A program made the translations under genes and the position numbers. Of a DNA stretch of 64,000 nt, positions 3,444-32,506 are shown piece by piece (the first letter of the stretch is position 1; each line of letters starts with the position of its first letter). Origin of the DNA: an uncultured archaeon (GTDB taxonomy: Archaea > Iainarchaeota > Iainarchaeia > Iainarchaeales > JAAZKV01); contig CAZHNO010000001.1 in assembly GCA_964534045.1 (NCBI GenBank), positions 224,621 through 288,620 on the forward strand. Reading direction: 5' to 3'. The notes below the pieces were generated by a model. That model saw only the letters and a program-made list of their open reading frames with translations, was not told the DNA's origin and did not search any database.

Positions 3444-4085
3444 TTATTTTATTTTGTGATTAGTCATTTTAATTAATTGCTTTAGTGTTAAGCCACCAAC
3501 AAGCAGTTCATTGAGAAAAAATTTTCCTTGTTTTGGGGGAAATTTCCAAATTTTTTCAAATCCTTTTTTGTCAATTTCTTTAAAATATTTTTTTAATTCT
3601 TTGGAATATCTTTTTGACATTACAGAGTAATCTTTTGTTTCTTTCCTGAATAATTCACAAAAGGGATATTGCTCTTCATAACCCGGAACAAACATAAAAG
3701 GAAACAATTTACAAGGATATGGTCTTTGTGAATAAATTTTGCATTTATTTTTTTTATCTAAATAGCGACAAATTCCATCATTTCTTTTTAGTGATATTTG
3801 GGGCAATACAAAAAAGCTTGGCGGTAAATAAGACAAATCTGTTGAAAGCATTTCTCCAATTCGCTTTGGAAAAAATGTGGTTAGATAGGTTAGTAAGCCA
3901 GGCGTACTTTTTGGAAAAACTTTTACGAATAATTCACAATGTTCTTCTAAAAACTTTTTTCTAGAAATTTTTAAAATTTTAGCAATTTTTTCAACCTCGC
4001 TTGGAAGGATAGTTATTGAATAGCGCTTACAACATTCTCCACAAGAAAGGCAAATAATTGATTCTTGCTTTGGGCTTAATTTCAT
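3444..4085 (-). CDS. YkgJ-family (CxxCxxCC putative Zn/Fe-chelating domain) protein
   Basis: CLSCGECC motif plus downstream C.YL...C.IY..RP.PC..FP pattern typical of PF03692. Confidence 0.55.
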   Translation of the reverse strand: MKLSPKQESIICLSCGECCKRYSITILPSEVEKIAKILKISRKKFLEEHCELFVKVFPKSTPGLLTYLTTFFPKRIGEMLSTDLSYLPPSFFVLPQISLKRNDGICRYLDKKNKCKIYSQRPYPCKLFPFMFVPGYEEQYPFCELFRKETKDYSVMSKRYSKELKKYFKEIDKKGFEKIWKFPPKQGKFFLNELLVGGLTLKQLIKMTNHKIK

Positions 4086-4162
4086 AAAAATTTTGAAAAA
4101 GGAAGTCTTTAAAAAGTAATTAAACTGAAATTAACTATCAATGAACTAAAAGTTCACAATAT

Positions 4163-4234
4163 GCCTTCGTAGCACAGCGGTAGTGCACGGGTTTTGTAAA
4201 CCTGAGGCCGGGGGTTCAAATCCCTCCGAAGGCT
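4163..4234 (+). tRNA. tRNA-Thr (anticodon TGT), intron-less
   Basis: Acceptor GCCTTCG/CGAAGGC, D-arm GCAC-AGCGGTA-GTGC, anticodon arm CGGGT-TTTGTAA-ACCTG, T-arm GGGGG-TTCAAAT-CCCTC, discriminator T. Confidence 0.75.
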
Positions 4235-4284
4235 TATTTCTTAATTCTAAAAAAAACAACATTATTTTGGGAATGCAAACACTT

Positions 4285-4331
4285 ACCTGAAAGGGTAAAG
4301 GGTTTGCGGCGTTAAAATCCCTCCGAAGGCT
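4285..4331 (+). pseudogene. degenerate duplicate of the tRNA-Thr 3' half (att-like remnant)
   Basis: ACCTGA..GGCGTTAAAATCCCTCCGAAGGCT repeats tRNA-Thr positions 39-73. The last 17 nt of the tRNA plus 12 nt of downstream flank (TATTTCTTAATT, through 4343) are identical to 4218..4246. Confidence 0.5.
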
Positions 4332-4451
4332 TATTTCTTAATTTAATTGTACATTTAACTGAAAAAAACTAGTTCTAAAAATAATGTTTTAACTTTGATT
4401 AATGAGAAAAGTTTTTATTATTGGCTACCCTGTTTTTAAGGTTGGTTAATT

Positions 4452-5783
4452 ATGCGTGCTCAAGGAACAATTGAATATTTAGTTATTATTGCTGTTGTTG
4501 TGGTTGTTGCATTAATTGTTGTGGGTTTGCTAGTAACTTTAATGGATTCGGGCGGAGATATTTCTGGAACAAGCAATCAAATTAATTATAATACACAAAC
4601 TCTCGCTTTAAATGACTATATTGTTTCAACTGATGGAAACTTTTTATTAGAAATAAAGTCAAATGAAGTGGGAAACATAACAATAGATAACGTGTCTATT
4701 GATAATGAAGAACAAGATTTTACAACAAACAATACAATCAACCTTGGACAAGAAAGATTAATAAAAATAGAATCTAGCACAACATGTGAAGAAGGGCAAA
4801 CTGTGACAGCACAAACAATCACAATAACCTATACTTCAGCAAACGGATTAACAAAAAAACAAATTTACGAAAATGTATCAATTCCTTGTCAAAATTATAC
4901 AAATCCAAACCAAACCCAACTACTGGGTGGAACAACAACACAATCAGAAGAAGATGCAAGTTGTGATGATTATGCCACAACAGATGGAGAAGATATTACT
5001 GATGATGGAACATATTGCACGGCAGTGTTTTTATCAGATGGAACTTTTACCGCACTAACTTCATTTAACGCAGAAGTTCTTGTTGTTGCTGGTGGAGGCG
5101 GTGGTGGTGGACCAGTTCATGCAGGTGGTGGTGGAGCAGGCGGTCTTGTTTATGATGATTCTTATTCCATTTCTCCAGGAGAAATTGAAGTTGTTGTTGG
5201 AGCTGGTGGTGCTGGTGGTGAAGGATGGAACATAACAACGAGCCCGGGGGAGAATGGTTCAAATTCAATATTCGATTCTATTGAAGCAATTGGTGGTGGC
5301 GGTGGAGCATATTGGTATCAAGGTGCATCCACTGCAGGAATAGGTGGTTCTGGTGGTGGTGCTGCACCTGAGCCAGAGGCAGCAACTGGTGCTATAGGGA
5401 CGGATGGGCAAGGATATGCTGGTGGTGGATCTTATGGTAGTACTAATGCTGGTGGAGGCGGCGGGGCTGGAGAAGCTGGAGAAAAAGCAGTATCTGGAAA
5501 AGCTGGTGACGGTGGGGATGGTGTCGAATATGATATTTCAGGAGAATCTGTTTATTATGCTGGTGGAGGCGGCGGAGGTGTTCACGAAGGTACTGCTACT
5601 ATTGGCCAAGGTGGTTTAGGTGGTGGCGGTGATGGAGGCGGAAATACGGTTGGTACTGCAAATGGCAATGATGGAACTGCTAACACAGGAGGTGGCGGTG
5701 GAGGTGCAGGGGGGACATCAGGGAGTTCTTATGCTGGTGGTGCTGGAGGATCAGGAATAGTAATAATTAGATACTTAAAATAA
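4452..5783 (+). CDS. type IV pilin-like protein (class III signal peptide, QGTIEYL motif) with Gly-rich C-terminal domain
   Basis: N-terminus MRAQGTIEYLVIIAVVVVVALIVVGLL is an archaeal prepilin-type signal. The C-terminal ~250 aa are poly-Gly rich (GGGGGGGPVHAGGGGAGG...). The N-terminal ~163 aa are ~85% identical to the pilin-like protein at 31289. Confidence 0.6.
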   Translation: MRAQGTIEYLVIIAVVVVVALIVVGLLVTLMDSGGDISGTSNQINYNTQTLALNDYIVSTDGNFLLEIKSNEVGNITIDNVSIDNEEQDFTTNNTINLGQERLIKIESSTTCEEGQTVTAQTITITYTSANGLTKKQIYENVSIPCQNYTNPNQTQLLGGTTTQSEEDASCDDYATTDGEDITDDGTYCTAVFLSDGTFTALTSFNAEVLVVAGGGGGGGPVHAGGGGAGGLVYDDSYSISPGEIEVVVGAGGAGGEGWNITTSPGENGSNSIFDSIEAIGGGGGAYWYQGASTAGIGGSGGGAAPEPEAATGAIGTDGQGYAGGGSYGSTNAGGGGGAGEAGEKAVSGKAGDGGDGVEYDISGESVYYAGGGGGGVHEGTATIGQGGLGGGGDGGGNTVGTANGNDGTANTGGGGGGAGGTSGSSYAGGAGGSGIVIIRYLK

Positions 5784-5908
5784 ATACTAATTTCAAGAAT
5801 ATGGTGTATTAAGTGATTTTAATCTTGTTTACATATCATAAAAACACAAAACATTAACTTTTTCCAGTTAAAGAAAGGTTTATATATTTTGTTTTGGAAG
5901 TATATAGT

Positions 5909-6091
5909 ATGGCTGATAAAGAAAGTAGAGATATTCCTTATGGAATGATTGCAATAATCCTTTCAGTAATATTTTTGATTTCAAGCATGGATTTGTTAGA
6001 GTTTAGTATTTTTAGTAGAGAATTTTCTAGCTTGGCAGCATTTATTCTTGTTGGAATTGGTGCTTATTTAATTGGAAAAGATGGAAAATAA
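5909..6091 (+). CDS. small membrane hypothetical protein (60 aa, 2 predicted TM)
   Basis: The track ORF starts with TTG. I trimmed to the in-frame ATG (MADKESRD...). Confidence 0.25.
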   Translation: MADKESRDIPYGMIAIILSVIFLISSMDLLEFSIFSREFSSLAAFILVGIGAYLIGKDGK

Positions 6092-6626: not shown

Positions 6627-8285
6627 TTATTTAAAGTATTTGTTCCCATTGTAAGCATTTTTGTACTCTTCACTTTTTTCCAATTGATCTGGAACTCTTT
6701 TATATTTTGACAAAGGATCTTTTGCTTTTCCTTTCCAATTTGTTTTAAATTCACTCCATGAAACAGAGTATTGTTTTTGTACTTTATCTCTATAAAGTTC
6801 TGGAACAACATTGAATGCACAGAAAGGAACTATTCTTCCATCAGGCATTGAATAATGAATATTACACCTTTCTACCCTTTGCTGGTCATAATTATATGGG
6901 TCCATAAAGTGCATCATCCCAATAAATAAAGAGTTTGTATGGAATTCCCCAAGCGCAGAATAATCATGTTTTATTAGTGCATTAAACAATAGTTTTGCTA
7001 AGTTAATATTTTTTGGAGCTTTTTTTAAATTAATAAAAGAATTTATTTTTAATAATAATTTTGCTGATTCTATTTTTTTATTTGAACCATTTTTTATTGC
7101 TTCTGCTCTTTCTTTTAAAAAAGCAAATAATCCATCTACATCAACAAACTCTGGCAAGGGCATTATTTTGTTTTTTTCTTTATCTAAGAACACATATGTT
7201 GCTGCTCCGCAAGCAAAGTGATTGTCTAGTGAATATTGCACATTTTCTGTTAGTGCTTCAATAAAATCAGTAAATGATGAAACACAAGGTATTGCAAAAA
7301 AATCTTTTTCTTTTATTGCTCCTTTTGTTTGTTTTTCAATTTTTTCTATTGCCCCTGGAATAGTAATTCTTTGTTTTTCTCTTTGTGATTTTGGCATTCT
7401 TCCAACAAACGAAACTGGTTGGAAATCTATTCCTCTTATTACATCAATATTTTGTAATGCAAAATCAATTATATTCCCAATATCGTTATCATTTATTCCC
7501 TTAATTAAAGTTGGTACTAAAACTATCCCTATTCCTGCTTTTCTACATTCAGCAATTGTTTTTGGCATTTCATAATGATTTTTTGGATTCGTTTTCTTTG
7601 TTGTTCCATCAAAAGAAAGATATAAAGTTGCAACTCCTGCTTTTTTTAATTTTTGAGCATAACCCGGATTGAATGCAATAGTCATTCCTGTTGTGTTTAA
7701 TTGTATGTGTTCAAATCCTTCTTCTTTTGCAACTTTAATTATTTCAAATAAATCTTCTCTTAAAGTTGGTTCTCCTCCAGTAAATTGTATTGCATTACAT
7801 GGAACTGGACTTTCATTCTTCAAATTTTTTAGCATTAATCGTATTTGTTCAATACTTGGTTCATATATTGGGTCGCCTTCTTTTGCATAAAAGAAACAAT
7901 ACCAACAACTCAAGTCACATCTATTTGTTAGAGCAATATTTGCTAGTGCTGTGTGTGAGTGATGATTTAAACACAAACCACAATCAAATGGACAATTAGT
8001 TCCACTATTTTTTATTAAACCAACATTATTATTCAATAAGCCCCTATTTGGAGAAGCATATTTTCTTGCTCTTTCAAATTCTTTTTCTGATTCCCAATAC
8101 ATTTCATCAAAGATTCCATGTTCTGGACAATTTCTTTTTATGTAAACTTTTCCTTTTTTTGCATATATTTCAGCTTCAAGAGTTTTTTTACACTCTGGAC
8201 AAATAGAACGTGTTTTATAAGGCAATTTTTTTCCATACGTGTCTGTAACTACACTTCGTTTATTTTTTTCCAAAATAAAAGACAT
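6627..8285 (-). CDS. radical SAM protein with N-terminal zinc-ribbon (large archaeal-type, function unassigned)
   Basis: CPECKK...NCPEHG zinc ribbon, then CPFDCGLC, then the canonical CDLSCWYC (CxxxCxxC) with FTGGEPTL glycine-rich SAM motif. Conserved C-terminal DGRIVPFCAFNVV region. Confidence 0.7.
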   Translation of the reverse strand: MSFILEKNKRSVVTDTYGKKLPYKTRSICPECKKTLEAEIYAKKGKVYIKRNCPEHGIFDEMYWESEKEFERARKYASPNRGLLNNNVGLIKNSGTNCPFDCGLCLNHHSHTALANIALTNRCDLSCWYCFFYAKEGDPIYEPSIEQIRLMLKNLKNESPVPCNAIQFTGGEPTLREDLFEIIKVAKEEGFEHIQLNTTGMTIAFNPGYAQKLKKAGVATLYLSFDGTTKKTNPKNHYEMPKTIAECRKAGIGIVLVPTLIKGINDNDIGNIIDFALQNIDVIRGIDFQPVSFVGRMPKSQREKQRITIPGAIEKIEKQTKGAIKEKDFFAIPCVSSFTDFIEALTENVQYSLDNHFACGAATYVFLDKEKNKIMPLPEFVDVDGLFAFLKERAEAIKNGSNKKIESAKLLLKINSFINLKKAPKNINLAKLLFNALIKHDYSALGEFHTNSLFIGMMHFMDPYNYDQQRVERCNIHYSMPDGRIVPFCAFNVVPELYRDKVQKQYSVSWSEFKTNWKGKAKDPLSKYKRVPDQLEKSEEYKNAYNGNKYFK

Positions 8286-14481: not shown

Positions 14482-16029
14482 ATGAATAAAAAATTGAATA
14501 ATATTGCACAAGGAACAATTGAATATTTAGTAATTATTGCAATTATTATTGTCATTGGTTTACTTGTCGTTCAATTATCTTTGAGTTTATTTGATTCTGA
14601 AAGTGTTTCTAACACTAGTAATAAAATTGGTTCCAAAATTGGTTCTGGGAGCATTAGTATTTTAGAAGCAGTTGCTGATGATAATTCTTTAGTAATTGCT
14701 TTATCTTCAATAGGAACAGATGGAATAAATTTAACCAAAATTACTATTGATGGAGTAGAAAATTATTATGAAAATCAATACTTACTTAATGCTCGTAGTT
14801 TTATATTAACAGAATTATCAAACAATTGTGCCTGTTCTAGTATGCAGAGTTCTAGAACTTGTTCATTTCAATTCACTTACACTACAAGAAATGGTTTAAC
14901 AAAAACAACAGACCCAATAAACGTTACTATTAATTGTACAACAAACATAAATCAAGAAAATCCAAATTATACTCAACCAACAATACAAGATTGTTATGAT
15001 TTAACAGAAGATCCAATCCAAATTTGTACGCTTAGTGATTTGAATAAAATCAGAGATGATTTAAGTGCAAATTATCAACTAATGAACAATATTGATGCTT
15101 CATCTACAAACACTTGGAATAATGGAGAAGGTTGGGAACCAATCGGAGATGGAGATGAATATTTTACTGGAACATTTGATGGACAAAATTTTGAGATAAG
15201 TAATCTTTACATAAATCGAACAAATACTTATGTTGGCATGTTTGGTTGGACAAGTGGCCCAATTTCTAATGTTGGTTTAACTGATGTAAATATCACTGGA
15301 AGTAGTGGAATTGGCGGAATTTCTGGAAGAAATCATTCAACAATAAGTAATTCAAATGTTTCTGGAAATATTAATGGAAATAATAAAATTGGAGGCATTA
15401 GCGGTTTTAATTTTAGTACAATAACAACTTCACATTCAAGTGCAAACATTACTGGAACTTATGAAATTGGAGGAATATCTGGGTACATTGATGGAGGGAC
15501 AATTACTTTATCTTATTCAACAGGAAATATTACTGGAACTGGTGATAATATAGGTGGAATTTGTGGGCGTAATGAAACTGGTTCAATAACAAAATCATAT
15601 TCAACAGGGAATATCTTTGGAGAAGACAAAATTGGTGGTTTACTTGGTTATAATGATGGTGGAACAATAAGTAATTCTTATTCCACTGGAAATATAACTG
15701 CCAGTGGCAGTAGTGTTGGTGGGTTGATTGGCTCAACAACAGGTGGAACAATTAATTATTCTTATTCCATTGGAGAAGCAAGTGGAGTTAGTAATGTTGG
15801 CGGATTAGTTGGAAATAATATTTTAGGAACAGCAACAAATTCATATTGGAATGTTACAACATCAAACTTAGACACATCAGCACTCGGAGAAGGAAAAACA
15901 ACATCTGAGATGAAAACACAATCAACATTTACTAATGGAAGCTGGGATTTTGACACTATTTGGCAAATTCAAGAAGACACAACATATCCATATTTAATAG
16001 ATAATATTCAAAACCCATTACCCCAATAA
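14482..16029 (+). CDS. type IV pilin-like protein (class III signal peptide) with C-terminal GLUG-type repeats
   Basis: N-terminus MNKKLNNIAQGTIEYLVIIAIIIVIGLLVV. The C-terminal half is tandem ~22-aa repeats of the form IGGISG.N.STI.NS.S.GNITG / VGGLIG...GGTI.YSYS.G. Confidence 0.6.
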   Translation: MNKKLNNIAQGTIEYLVIIAIIIVIGLLVVQLSLSLFDSESVSNTSNKIGSKIGSGSISILEAVADDNSLVIALSSIGTDGINLTKITIDGVENYYENQYLLNARSFILTELSNNCACSSMQSSRTCSFQFTYTTRNGLTKTTDPINVTINCTTNINQENPNYTQPTIQDCYDLTEDPIQICTLSDLNKIRDDLSANYQLMNNIDASSTNTWNNGEGWEPIGDGDEYFTGTFDGQNFEISNLYINRTNTYVGMFGWTSGPISNVGLTDVNITGSSGIGGISGRNHSTISNSNVSGNINGNNKIGGISGFNFSTITTSHSSANITGTYEIGGISGYIDGGTITLSYSTGNITGTGDNIGGICGRNETGSITKSYSTGNIFGEDKIGGLLGYNDGGTISNSYSTGNITASGSSVGGLIGSTTGGTINYSYSIGEASGVSNVGGLVGNNILGTATNSYWNVTTSNLDTSALGEGKTTSEMKTQSTFTNGSWDFDTIWQIQEDTTYPYLIDNIQNPLPQ

Positions 16030-17449: not shown

Positions 17450-17561
17450 GCCAGAAAACAAAAAACTAAACTTTAAAAACACCCCCACGGCTTTGCTAAA
17501 GCCGGCAAAAGAATTTGGCTATTTTCAATAGCCAGAAAACAAAAAAACTAAACTTTAAAAA
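17450..17561 (+). repeat. ~1.5-copy tandem duplication (two 30-nt direct repeats GCCAGAAAACAAAAAA(A)CTAAACTTTAAAAA) bracketing copy B of the two-hairpin RNA element
   Basis: The sequences at 17450..17479 and 17531..17561 are near-identical. The intervening 17480..17530 carries CGGCT-TTGCTAA-AGCCG and TGGCTATT-TTC-AATAGCCA hairpins homologous to 1116..1172. Confidence 0.5.
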
Positions 17562-17940
17562 TACTCTCACTTCCATTTCTTAGTAGGATGAAATCCGAAA
17601 GGAAAAAGTCCGTGTTCCGAACGAAAGTGAGGAAGAGGGATTGCAAAAAGCAATCGCTCCCAGATGTGAACTGGCTGGGCAGTTCCCCCCTTAGTTTAGT
17701 AGCTAGAACGCTTGGCTGTAGTTCCTGCTTTTCTTTAGGAAAGAAAAGCTAGGTTACCAAAAGAAAATTTGGTGATTTAAAGATTTTAGAGCAATCTGAT
17801 ACAAGCATTCGGTTCAAACTGGTAAAAAAAGGAATTCTCTAAAGTGCTAGTGTAAATAGCACAAAGCGTGTTCCGGACCAGCCGATCGGAAGCGGCTACC
17901 GAGAGATCCCCGGTGCAACTCTGGGAGGGGGGATTTTTTT
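17562..17940 (+). ncRNA. structured non-coding RNA: candidate RNase P RNA (SRP RNA not excluded)
   Basis: No ORF. GGAAAAAGTCCG resembles the RNase P CR-I/P4 5' strand GGAAAGUCCGG. ACAAAGCGTGTTCCGGACC near the 3' end resembles CR-V ACARAA..CCGG with a complementary CGGAC. Possible P1 pairing TCTC/GAGA. Multiple hairpins. Ends in a T8 tract (17933..17940). An RNase P protein Rpp29 gene is present at 58960. Confidence 0.4.
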
Positions 17941-24595: not shown

Positions 24596-24797
24596 ATGGG
24601 CTTTTTCATAAGCAATTTAATTGGAATAGATTTTGCAAAATAAGTGAGCTTTTTAAAACTTCTTAGTTAAATTTTCTTTAATAACATTTGATACATGGGA
24701 AAAGCTTTATCAAACAAAGATAAAATAATACCAAATTGTTCCGAATGAAATGAAGAAGACACCAAAGGTGTCCGATTCAATGCAACGGAATGCCGTT

Positions 24798-24950
24798 GCC
24801 CTGATAGTCTAGTGGTTAGGATGCACCCCTGTCAACTCGCGCAAGCGAGGTAGGAAATCCAAAGTTTTCTTTGGGCTACCCTACACCTTTCTTTTCCTAA
24901 AAGAAAGGGGCGGTTCGGGTGCGACTCGGGTTCGAGCCCCGGTCAGGGCG
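24798..24950 (+). tRNA. tRNA-Asp (anticodon GTC) with an ~81-nt intron at 37/38 (approx. 24835..24915)
   Basis: Acceptor GCCCTGA/TCAGGGC, D-arm GTCT-AGTGGTTA-GGAT, anticodon stem CACCC/GGGTG flanking CTGTCA|intron|C, T-arm TCGGG-TTCGAGC-CCCGG, discriminator G. The intron folds into several hairpins including a CTCGC-GCAA-GCGAG tetraloop hairpin. Confidence 0.6.
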
Positions 24951-25002
24951 TGAATTAGTCAATTTATCAACATTTAATAACTTTCAAAACACAATCTTAT
25001 TT

Positions 25003-27201: not shown

Positions 27202-27792
27202 ATGCAACTAATAAAAGCTGTTCAAAATAGGCATAGTGTCAGAGCTTTTGAAAAAAAGAAAATTCCAAAAAGTACAATCAAAAAATTAGTCAAACTGGCC
27301 ACAATGGCACCTTCAGCAGGAAATAGACAACCTTGGATTTTTTATTGCATAGATAATAAAAATAAAAGAAATCAAATATCAGAATTATTAAAATCAACAT
27401 TAGAAATTTTCAAGGAAGACATTGAAAAAAAAGAAAATAAAATCAAAAACATTATTTTGAGTTTTTATTCTGATTTAGGAGGATCCCAAAATTTAATTTT
27501 TATATTTAGAAAAAAAAGCAAAAAAGAAGAAGCACACACCTGCCCTAACGATATTGCAAGCATTTCTTGTGCTGCACAAAATATTATGCTTTGTGCACAA
27601 GAGTTTGGATTAGGCACTTGCTGGATTGGAAGTTTTAATGGACCACAAATTGAACCCAAACTAAAGACAATTTTGAATGCAAAAAATGATGAAGAACTAG
27701 TTTGTAGCTTAATAATTGGTTTTCCAAAAAAAGGTTTCAAAAAATTAAAAAGGACAAAAAAGAAATTAAACGAAATAATCAAATTTATTTAA
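27202..27792 (+). CDS. nitroreductase-family protein
   Basis: VQNRHSVRAFEKKKI...ATMAPSAGNRQPW is the canonical nitroreductase N-terminal signature. Confidence 0.7.
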   Translation: MQLIKAVQNRHSVRAFEKKKIPKSTIKKLVKLATMAPSAGNRQPWIFYCIDNKNKRNQISELLKSTLEIFKEDIEKKENKIKNIILSFYSDLGGSQNLIFIFRKKSKKEEAHTCPNDIASISCAAQNIMLCAQEFGLGTCWIGSFNGPQIEPKLKTILNAKNDEELVCSLIIGFPKKGFKKLKRTKKKLNEIIKFI

Positions 27793-27934
27793 GGAATTAT
27801 TTCAGCGCATCAAAATGTTCAAGAGAACATTGAGAAAGATGAAATAATCAAGGAATTATTTCGGCGCAATTATATTTTCCCGAGGAAATATAATAAAGCG
27901 AAATTATGGAATAATTTCGCAGCAATTATATTTT
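27791..27934. repeat. three imperfect direct repeats (~27 nt, GGAATWATTTCRGCGCAATTATATTTT) between convergent genes; the last unit includes a 9-bp inverted repeat
   Basis: Units at 27791..27809, 27850..27878, 27908..27934. Hairpin CGAAATTAT-GGA-ATAATTTCG at 27899..27919 overlaps the stop codon of the minus-strand radical SAM gene. Confidence 0.4.
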
Positions 27935-31288: not shown

Positions 31289-32506
31289 ATGGCAAAAAAA
31301 ATTTTTGAAAAAAAAGCACAAGGAACGATTGAATATTTGGTTATTATTGCAATTGTTGTGGTTGTTGCATTAATTGTTGTTGGTTTACTAATAACTTTAA
31401 TGGGTTCTGGAGGAGATATTTCTGGAACAAGCAACCAAATAAATTATAAAACACAAACACTTGCTTTAAACGATTATTTAGTTTCAACAGACGGAAACTA
31501 TTTGTTAGAAATAAAATCAAACGAAGTTGGAAACATAACAATAGATAATATTTCTATTAATGGAGAAGACACACCCTTCACAACAAACAATACAATAAAC
31601 CTCGGACAAGAAAGATTAATAAAAATAGAATCCAGCACAACTTGTGAAGAAGGACAAAAAGTAGCCACACAAAACATAACAATAACATACACCACAACAA
31701 ATGGATTAACAAAAAAACAAACATACGAAAGTGTATCAATCCCTTGTCAAAATTATACAAATCCAAACGAAAACCAACTACTGGGTGGAACGACAAGCGA
31801 AGCATCTGAAGATGAAATTGATCCGGCCATAACCCAATTAAGAAGTGGTTTGGTTGGATATTGGCCACTTGATGAAACGAGCGGAACGACCGCTTATGAT
31901 AATTCAGGAAATGGGTATAATGGGGAATTAATTGACGGGGCAGTATTTGCTAGTGGTGGTTTAATTGAAGGCGCAGTAGATGTTGATCCAAGAAATACAT
32001 CCAATTATAAAAGAGTAATGATTGATATACCAAAACAAAATAGTTTTACATATCAAATTTGGAGTAAAAGATCTGTAACTGGACACCAAGAGCTTATTTA
32101 TAGAAGCAGTGATTCTACTTCTAGCCCATTATCAATGCTTGGTTTTGGAAATAACTCTCAATTTTTTATAAAACCATTTGGTTCGGAGCATTGGGGGCCA
32201 TCTGTTTCTTGCCCAGGCGATTATTGTTTTAGTAACATAGATATTTGGTATCACGTTGTAATAACTTATGATTCGGCAACTGGTGAACTTAAAAATTATG
32301 TTAACACTTTACCAATAATAAATCAGTCTGTTGGAGCCAGTCAAAGTGAAAGTGGAGACATACTCTTCTTTGGGGGAAGAAATACTAGTTGGGGTGGTCT
32401 AAGTGGACTAATTAGCGAAGCTGCGTTTTGGGATAGAGCATTAAGTTCGGATGAAATAGAATCACTTTATAATGAAGGAAATGGATTAAGCTTAAAAATT
32501 AGTTAA
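31289..32506 (+). CDS. type IV pilin-like protein (class III signal peptide) with C-terminal LamG/concanavalin-A-like lectin domain
   Basis: MAKKIFEKKAQGTIEYLVIIAIVVVVALIVVGLL. The N-terminal ~170 aa are ~85% identical to 4452. The C-terminus (GYWPLDETSGTTAYDNSGNGYNG...DIWYHVVITYDSATGELKNYVN...LISEAAFWDRALSSDEIESLYNEG) is a classic LamG-type jelly-roll pattern. Confidence 0.6.
   Translation: MAKKIFEKKAQGTIEYLVIIAIVVVVALIVVGLLITLMGSGGDISGTSNQINYKTQTLALNDYLVSTDGNYLLEIKSNEVGNITIDNISINGEDTPFTTNNTINLGQERLIKIESSTTCEEGQKVATQNITITYTTTNGLTKKQTYESVSIPCQNYTNPNENQLLGGTTSEASEDEIDPAITQLRSGLVGYWPLDETSGTTAYDNSGNGYNGELIDGAVFASGGLIEGAVDVDPRNTSNYKRVMIDIPKQNSFTYQIWSKRSVTGHQELIYRSSDSTSSPLSMLGFGNNSQFFIKPFGSEHWGPSVSCPGDYCFSNIDIWYHVVITYDSATGELKNYVNTLPIINQSVGASQSESGDILFFGGRNTSWGGLSGLISEAAFWDRALSSDEIESLYNEGNGLSLKIS

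Follow-up and report, generated by a model that had tools for sequence, protein, structure and literature searches.

Two copies of a tRNA-Thr 3' end flank a short conserved insert at a variable site in archaeal DNA

In a stretch of 64,000 nucleotides (nt) of DNA from an uncultured archaeon (contig CAZHNO010000001.1), which we call the window, an intact gene for tRNA-Thr(UGU) is followed at a short distance by a second, partial copy of its own 3' end. There is an insertion at the 3' end of this tRNA gene, which is bounded by direct repeats, is absent from close relatives and contains a discrete conserved module. On balance, we lean toward the explanation that a small insertion has the two copies as its junctions and is a non-autonomous remnant flanked by attachment (att) sites at a recurrent integration site. 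We infer that an integrase was the maker of this scar.

The tRNA-Thr gene (4163-4234, + strand) is recognized by both ARAGORN and Rfam (RF00005), with a score of 70.3 bits across the full model for the latter. As an earlier note on this DNA had pointed out, the last 17 nt of the gene and the next 12 nt are duplicated. This 29-mer, AAATCCCTCCGAAGGCTTATTTCTTAATT, is found in exact copies at 4218-4246 and 4315-4343, and these are its only two occurrences in the window on both strands with up to three mismatches (0 expected, as determined with 100 shuffles). The generic repeat that the note had considered is therefore not seen within these 64 kb. Ungapped extension yields a 36-nt repeat with 34/36 identities (94%), whose copies, 4211-4246 and 4308-4343, start 97 nt apart, and local alignment of the two copies scores z = 20-22 against shuffles. 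The repeat consists of the last 24 nt of tRNA-Thr (positions 49-73) followed by a 12-nt trailer (TATTTCTTAATT). Judging from the sequence, copy 1 (+ strand) completes a functional tRNA, which plays the part of the reconstituted gene at an attL-like junction. Copy 2 (+ strand), which is attR-like, begins with GGCGTTAAAATCCC, a mimic of the T arm, and is then exact throughout the acceptor 3' strand, discriminator and 12-nt trailer. Two of the five base pairs (bp) of its T stem (CGGCG/CCCTC) are lost, and its T loop has an A instead of C56. Leftward of 4308, likeness to the tRNA falls abruptly to chance level, and copy 2 corresponds only to the 3' third of the tRNA, from the T arm onward, not to the 3' half described in the note. 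A simple tandem duplication of the 97-nt unit is out, the two units being unrelated outside the 36 nt. The leader sequence AATA (-5 to -2; 4158-4162) can pair with TATT in the trailer (+1 to +4; 4235-4239), which lengthens the acceptor helix of the pre-tRNA by 4 bp, and an identical trailer follows copy 2.

Divergent from the tRNA gene lies a ykgJ-type CxxCxxCC cysteine-cluster gene (3444-4085, - strand; Pfam PF03692, E = 4.9e-14), which served as a conserved left anchor for locating syntenic loci. We used 50 metagenome loci retrieved via the YkgJ family, plus loci from exact-protein look-ups, and tRNA-Thr(UGU) adjoins ykgJ in ~33 related loci. YkgJ has 85 homologs, the closest named of which belong to Candidatus Iainarchaeum/Diapherotrites, and the GC content of the window is ~30%. 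As far as these sequences tell, the host is an Iainarchaeota/Diapherotrites-like DPANN archaeon, not a nanoarchaeon as the Nanoarchaeota context of the earlier note would have it.

The 61 nt between the two copies (4247-4307, + strand), in which there is no open reading frame (ORF), form the inserted module, hereafter X. It starts A-rich, contains a conserved ATTTTGGGAATGCAA and forms a long hairpin (4264-4318) whose 3' outer strand, UUAAAAU, runs into copy 2. A homologue of X is present in L055, a JGI metagenome contig from an unrelated sample with a ~50% identical YkgJ, where it lies at 7393-7447 (- strand), directly 3' of tRNA-Glu(CUC). The sequence 3' of this tRNA-Glu reads ...AAAAAAATTTTGGGAATGCAAcaccttttcaaaaaaggggTTGCGGCGTTAGAATCCCaacccagggta, and the window sequence aligned to it reads ...ATTATTTTGGGAATGCAAacacttacctgaaagggtaaagggtTTGCGGCGTTAAAATCCCtccgaaggct. 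Two blocks are conserved (15/15 and 22/24), and the top of the hairpin varies yet still pairs. Indeed, both lineages share a fold in which a 3x3 internal loop (GAA/GCG) separates a 7-bp outer stem (AUUUUGG/UUARAAU) from a long inner hairpin, with z = -2.5 in the window and -2.0 in L055. Past a shared AATCCC, the window reads TCCGAAGGCT, which is 10/10 identical to the tRNA-Thr acceptor 3' strand, and L055 reads (AA)CCCAGGGTA, in which CCAGGGTA is 8/8 identical to tRNA-Glu after 2-3 differing bases. By this comparison, GGCGTTAAAATCCC belongs to the inserted module as a T-arm mimic, and only the right part of copy 2 is local tRNA sequence. The GGCGTT at the start of copy 2 is common to the second copies in L055 and in another locus, L041. 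A covariance model of X (R1) finds just these two copies in 437 kb (window plus loci, 50 sources), and X has no significant similarity to the tRNA introns and leaders of the window. Upstream of copy 2, an ACCTGA had been taken for a weaker likeness to the 3' strand of the anticodon stem. It is 13 nt out of register and lies inside the hairpin of X, and the homologous module in L055 reads ACCTTTTC there; we treat the match as chance. The view of the locus as a scar or remnant, which the note had also put forward, holds as far as the insertion junctions are concerned, but the 61 nt between them are a discrete conserved module and no random leftover.

Copy 2 had alternatively been seen as a tRNA half, of interest because of split tRNA genes. 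We find it very improbable that it is either a decayed tandem tRNA duplicate or the 3' half of a split or trans-spliced tRNA-Thr, although the 97-nt period comes close to the length of a tRNA and 25 nt more, both acceptor strand and discriminator are intact, and highly disrupted tRNA genes are present both in DPANN archaea and in the window (introns of 76, 81 and 176 nt). A tandem duplicate would decay gradually, whereas identity drops from 34/36 to chance abruptly at 4308. Split tRNA 3' halves have been described in Nanoarchaeum equitans and Caldivirga (PMC3218864, cited for context), and copy 2 resembles them in being a free-standing piece with a tRNA acceptor 3' strand. However, such a half should encode positions 38-73 with a foldable T arm, whereas likeness here begins only at position 49, with a broken T stem and another base in place of C56. 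Moreover, a complete gene for this very tRNA ends 73 nt before copy 2, and the left part of the supposed half is X, which is common to the tRNA-Glu locus of L055. An Rfam search at copy 2 gave no tRNA match even at E ≤ 10, and the window holds no matching 5' half, its sole GCCTTCG 5' strand being that of the intact tRNA, with no other GCCTTCGKAG in the 64 kb. No bulge-helix-bulge, which in archaeal tRNA introns has two 3-nt bulges on either side of a 4-bp helix at the boundaries, was seen by inspection of the folds (no dedicated search for this motif was made), X having a symmetric 3x3 loop and no staggered bulges. Copy 2 should be annotated as an att-type fragment, not as a tRNA or pseudo-tRNA. 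Because the first copy is intact, the scar is not expected to disrupt tRNA-Thr.

Comparison with related genomes shows that the site is polymorphic. The closest relative (L007, Logan SRR13427962), with a 90% identical YkgJ, has the same sequence as the window over ~80 nt before the tRNA and the whole of the tRNA down to its last base, after which ~11 nt are followed by the homologue of window positions ~5823-5840 onward. As assessed by blastn, L007 2424-3198 corresponds to 4234-3460 and L007 2120-2412 to 6141-5840. The segment missing from L007, 4235 to ~5822 (right edge 5822-5840, ~1.59 kb), comprises the trailer, X, copy 2 and a pilin-like gene. In L008 (76%) and L009 (74%), other genes are found in the slot between tRNA-Thr and two conserved genes, encoding a 60-amino acid (aa) protein and a radical-SAM protein. 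The 3' side of tRNA-Thr is a variable slot. The suggestion that the duplication is the footprint of an insertion at a tRNA gene is thus borne out by L007, which lacks the insert, and by pairs of filled and empty sites; related genomes do not all show the same arrangement.

The filled and empty pairs reveal the make-up of the junctions. L031, a sister of L041, has an identical tRNA and no insert, and the end of the second copy in L041 together with the flank beyond it equals the tRNA end and native trailer of L031 (24/24). The same comparison of L022 with L021 gives 22/22. To the left of a 17-mer shared by the two copies in L041, the first copy has the tRNA bases GGGGTCCGA and the second the foreign bases GGCGTTCGT; on the right side of the 17-mer, the trailer is foreign in the first copy and native in the second. 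On sequence grounds, this partition is the one expected for attL and attR after a single crossover of attB with a tRNA-mimicking attP. In the window there is no empty-site flank for the same partition of mismatches, copy 2 being followed by a pilin-like cassette that is absent in L007. A transposon or miniature inverted-repeat transposable element with target-site duplication was considered and rejected. Native flanks would lie outside such an element too, but an end that imitates a T arm and a variable repeat length (8-39 nt) would be unexpected, and no terminal inverted repeats were seen at 4235/5822 or at the ends of X.

Second copies recur in other lineages. We aligned the last 40 nt of the tRNA plus 15 nt of trailer to the next 245 nt, and considered a second copy strong when z ≥ 5 and 0 of 100-200 shuffles were as good. 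Apart from the window, at least six lineages have such a copy at tRNA-Thr and two (L021 and L054) at tRNA-Met, with weaker ones in L051 and L038. At tRNA-Thr, the 36-nt copy of the window with its period of 97 nt is joined by those of L014/L062/L063, three independent assemblies (39 nt, i.e. 10 nt of tRNA and 29 nt of trailer, period 94), L041 (32 nt with a GGCGTT start, period 107), L030 (two extra copies, period 48), L032 (period 100), L022 (period ~91) and L044 (period 74). The tRNA/trailer junction is included in every repeat. Across loci, repeats are 8-39 nt and inserts 29-107 nt long, and the inserts are hairpin-rich and belong to several unrelated sequence families. When the part of tRNA-Thr from T loop to acceptor, GTTMAAATCCCTCCGAAGGCT, was searched in GTDB species genomes, a collection that does not include the source genome, only six single-copy tRNA-Thr genes of other DPANN lineages were found, and an exact 32-mer of tRNA-Thr had no match in JGI metagenomes.

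These other loci also make it hardly credible that the arrangement is an artefact of metagenome assembly. The exact junction is seen in a single assembly, and Logan contigs of the same samples (L010 and L011; SRR11845624 and SRR11845625) are 100% identical to other parts of the window and break around the junction, which lies outside their coverage; L011 carries the exact 60-aa protein and the 3' end of the pilin-like gene. However, a chimeric join at the shared 29-mer would give one copy, not two in series, the analogous arrangement of the L062 lineage is found in three independent assemblies, and the homologous X of L055 comes from an unrelated sample.

Conservation of X, whose blocks and hairpin are kept with a top that still pairs between lineages with ~50% identical YkgJ proteins, and whose folds score z = -2.5 and -2.0, could also mean that X and copy 2 are a functional small RNA or a cis element of the tRNA transcription unit. 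They may form a co-transcribed trailer RNA with a tRNA-like 3' end and a back-up terminator, the latter being an example of a cis role that copy 2 may have. Alternatively, they may specify a small RNA on the minus strand, with a 5' end antisense to the 3' end of the pre-tRNA and a stop at the T8 complementary to 4249-4256. Consistent with a functional RNA, a T-rich run is found along with the tRNA/trailer junction in every repeat, and tRNA-Glu in L055 has no T-run before X, which makes read-through into X plausible. We nevertheless consider this explanation unlikely. X or the insert is missing from L007 and from L031 and L021, the sister lineages of carriers, the only two copies of X in 437 kb are at different tRNAs, and unrelated inserts occupy the same position in other lineages. 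In addition, folding of the 111-nt spacer as a whole is not better than that of shuffles (z = -0.35), only the 61-nt core of X being mildly significant, the A-run needed to end a minus-strand RNA is absent from the other insert families, and there is no Rfam match. No K-turn or C/D-box motif was seen in X by inspection, and scans for sigma-70 promoters and terminators were uninformative, the host being an archaeon.

The same tRNA is accompanied by an integrase gene in three other contigs. In L038 (4443-5666), L067 (5463-6689) and L068 (913-2139), an intact tyrosine integrase of 408 aa (PF00589, E = 7e-23) is encoded on the strand of the tRNA, with its start 162 nt after tRNA-Thr(UGU). Placement of an integrase gene after a tRNA gene and on its strand is the pNOB8-type layout (PMC3293823), and the L038 locus is probably an integrated element of an Iainarchaeota-like archaeon. 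The L038-type integrase has a C-terminal zinc-ribbon-like tail and is followed by unknown membrane/secreted proteins up to the end of the contig, which comes 6.8 kb beyond the integrase and before the far junction. In L009 and L012, a 12-mer copy of the acceptor end plus a T-run is found 1.8 kb downstream and brackets an ABC-ATPase gene fragment and an unknown ORF. An integrase scar, as proposed in the earlier note, thus agrees with the insertion footprint and with the integrase after the same tRNA in L038; for the window itself, integrase activity is a presumed origin.

Short inserts of this kind might also arise independently of a recombinase, if template switching or microhomology-mediated repair copied a short patch and duplicated the junction. 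The patch may come from elsewhere, e.g. from a tRNA intron or flank. This would suit the very short inserts (29-107 nt), the repeat length that varies between 8 and 39 nt and the simple tandem reduplication of a 48-nt unit in L030. It would also suit two cases of shared intron sequence, i.e. the L022 insert, which matches the 3' part of the tRNA-Tyr intron of the window (19/19, ~35/41), and a 31-mer of the tRNA-Glu intron, which is also found between genes, in a region with a 34-nt direct repeat on either side. Against it, the ends of X, a discrete unit, are the same in two distant lineages and at two tRNAs, the T-arm mimic at the right end (GGCGTT...ATCCC) is found in three independent cases, which is a property of an attachment site and not of filler, and an integrase-bearing element is present at the same site in L038. 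We therefore regard repair-mediated patching as a doubtful source of the insert.

If the two copies are indeed the junctions of an att-flanked insertion, they would have been generated by a reciprocal site-specific (Campbell-type) crossover between the tRNA 3' end (attB) and an attP mimicking the 3' part of a tRNA. The attP would have been carried by an integrative element with a pNOB8-type tyrosine integrase, like that at the L038 tRNA. What remains would be a non-autonomous, att-flanked miniature, which is either what a deletion left behind or a minimal module that was moved in trans, and the pilin-like gene to its right would have been gained or lost separately in the same hot spot. The empty junction would then read ...GAAGGCT followed by TATTTCTTAATTTAATTG, or by an L007-type flank, the circle junction would read GTTTGCGGCGTTAAAATCCCTCCGAAGGCTTATTTCTTAATTCTAAAAAAAAC, and the attP would be a site like GGCGTTARAATCCC plus the acceptor.

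Several findings weigh against this explanation. Searching by tblastn with the L038 integrase found none in the 64-kb window at E ≤ 1, with a single query that would miss other families. The repeat core, X, the L022 module and the GGCGTT...GGCT mimic had zero matches in IMG/VR, the spacer had no match among INPHARED phages or PLSDB plasmids, and no excised or attP form was seen. At 97 nt, the unit is too short for a free replicon and for a plausible substrate of recombination; since it is too small to recombine as a circle, either a prior interior deletion or another way of moving would be needed. The repeat includes 12 nt of lineage-specific trailer, which means that the donor site matched it or that gene conversion made the copies alike. 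Copy 2 in the window is followed by the pilin cassette, which L007 lacks, rather than by an L007-type flank, and because the native flank of L007 is found after the pilin gene instead of after copy 2, the arrangement takes two events or more. Lastly, X does not differ in extent between the two lineages and folds into a coherent single hairpin in each, which suits a discrete functional or mobile unit better than a random deletion remnant.

A broader proposal, which we offer tentatively as a possibility, is that X and the other short hairpin inserts represent an undescribed class of non-autonomous miniature elements of Iainarchaeota that target tRNA 3' ends and are linked to the evolution of tRNA introns and fragments. 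Members of such a class would have a T-arm-mimicking end and duplicate the tRNA end on insertion, and may be raw material for non-canonical tRNA introns and tRNA fragments. The link to introns is conceivable because one insert shares sequence with the tRNA-Tyr intron, and because intron modules recur in tRNA flanks of this genome.

Beyond copy 2, the variable slot holds the pilin-like gene (4452-5783, + strand), which the earlier note had placed there and which has a class III signal peptide (PF04021) and a Gly_rich_2 domain (PF21722) according to Pfam. Its product is 100% identical to P0086, a protein encoded on an NCBI contig of 314 kb. The first conserved gene to the right of the slot encodes the 60-aa membrane protein (5909-6091, + strand) and has homologues in L007, L008 and L009. 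The pilin-like gene may have come to the hot spot as cargo, or L007 may have lost it; we treat it as cargo of the variable slot, apart from the event that inserted X. A pilin-like gene is also found after tRNA-Thr in L055. Three paralogous pilin-like genes with class III signal peptides are present in the window (4452-5783, 14482-16029 and ~31289-32506). In those at 4452 and ~31289, the first ~500 nt are 85% identical and the remainder is divergent, and the paralog at 14482 is more weakly related. At the C terminus, the first has Gly_rich_2 and the third Laminin_G_3. This pattern suggests a conserved N-terminal module with exchanged C-terminal domains.

Long introns are found in three of the four tRNA genes of the window. 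tRNA-Tyr(GUA) (17685-17933, + strand) has a 176-nt intron at the canonical position 37/38, with exons at 17685-17721 and 17898-17933. It is missed by default ARAGORN, by intron-aware ARAGORN and at the Rfam gathering threshold, and the hand-spliced 73-mer is identified as tRNA-Tyr by ARAGORN. tRNA-Glu(CUC) (1078-1226, + strand), with a 76-nt intron, is detected by intron-aware ARAGORN only, and tRNA-Asp(GUC) (24797-24951, + strand), with an 81-nt intron, by intron-aware ARAGORN and also by Rfam. An exact 31-mer hairpin module, AAAGAATTTGGCTATTTTCAATAGCCAGAAA, is found in the tRNA-Glu intron (1136-1166) and in an intergenic position upstream of tRNA-Tyr (17508-17538). The intergenic copy lies inside an insert flanked by a 34-nt direct repeat (17455-17488/17537-17570) with an 82-nt period, a layout of repeat, hairpin insert and repeat that is also the layout at tRNA-Thr. 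The tRNA-Tyr intron ends, on its 3' side, in a two-hairpin module (GTGCTnn..nnAGCAC AAAGCGTGTTCCGG..CGGAA; 17846-17895) that is ~35/41 identical, with an exact 19-mer, to the L022 insert (~535-600, - strand) between tRNA-Thr and its second copy. The first hairpin of this module is present in the L041 and L044 inserts with compensatory changes in its stem.

Conserved structured leaders precede tRNA genes, including tRNA-Met in L054, L055 and L021. One leader, GTTCCGAAYGAAA..GAAGA, is found upstream of both tRNA-Tyr (17606-17682) and tRNA-Asp (24739-24796), and another, CCCAGATGTGAACTGGCTGGGCAGTTC, upstream of tRNA-Tyr in the window and of tRNA-Met in L054. Elsewhere in the window, a 33-nt direct repeat is present three times, with a 56-59 nt period, in an intergenic region (27787-27934) between two convergent or divergent ORFs. 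In L006 (~4432-4500, - strand), a metagenome-assembled genome of Nanoarchaeia, a tRNA-Thr-type 3' end, GGTTCAAATCCCTCCGAAGGCT, follows sequence unlike a normal tRNA 5' part; this gene may contain an intron or be split.

Partial tRNA copies left by the integration of mobile elements are documented in archaea, with attL/attR examples for pNOB8-type and SSV-type integrases and for PYG1 of Pyrococcus yayanosii, which has 44-bp repeats (PMC9897764, PMC3293823). The locus described here resembles these in having an intact tRNA whose 3' end is partially copied in direct orientation, an insertion that is polymorphic among relatives, a native flank after the distal copy (in L041 and L022) and an integrase beside the reconstituted tRNA on the same strand (in L038). 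It differs in that 61 nt, rather than the published 9-23 kb, separate the copies, in that there is no ORF between them and no L038-like integrase was found in the window, and in that the repeat reaches 12 nt beyond the tRNA. Disruption of archaeal tRNA genes by mobile elements and gain or transposition of their introns have also been reported (Sugahara et al. 2012, PMC3293823; reviewed in PMC4090602 and PMC4033280). As in the cases of Sugahara et al., the tRNA-Thr locus is heterogeneous at the population level, tRNA fragments are made by insertion, and the L022 insert shares tRNA-intron sequence. Unlike in those cases, the insert comes after a complete tRNA and not inside it, and no spliceable motif was seen.

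Cis-mobilizable elements (CIMEs) are att-flanked derivatives of integrative elements that lack an integrase. They are known from Streptococcus, and are kilobases long and bacterial. The window locus is similar to CIMEs in that two att-like repeats surround DNA without recombination genes (here the 61-nt interval), the same internal module is found at a second att site (L055), and a further element or cassette lies past the distal repeat, as if by accretion (the pilin cassette in the window, the integrase element in L038). It is dissimilar in that the module measures only ~100 nt, and mobilization in trans would be hypothetical here.

The bare duplication is ordinary, partial tRNA copies from integrating elements being textbook knowledge. 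Less ordinary are the 61-nt scale, the presence of a conserved, foldable module at a second tRNA with a matched acceptor part, and the recurrence of comparable mini-inserts at tRNA-Thr and tRNA-Met in a DPANN phylum with heavily disrupted tRNA genes. If these inserts are mobile, they would offer a concrete and testable route from attachment sites to tRNA fragments and introns, and tRNA-Thr(UGU) would be a hot spot of gene exchange with turnover of genes for surface proteins of the pilin-like type.

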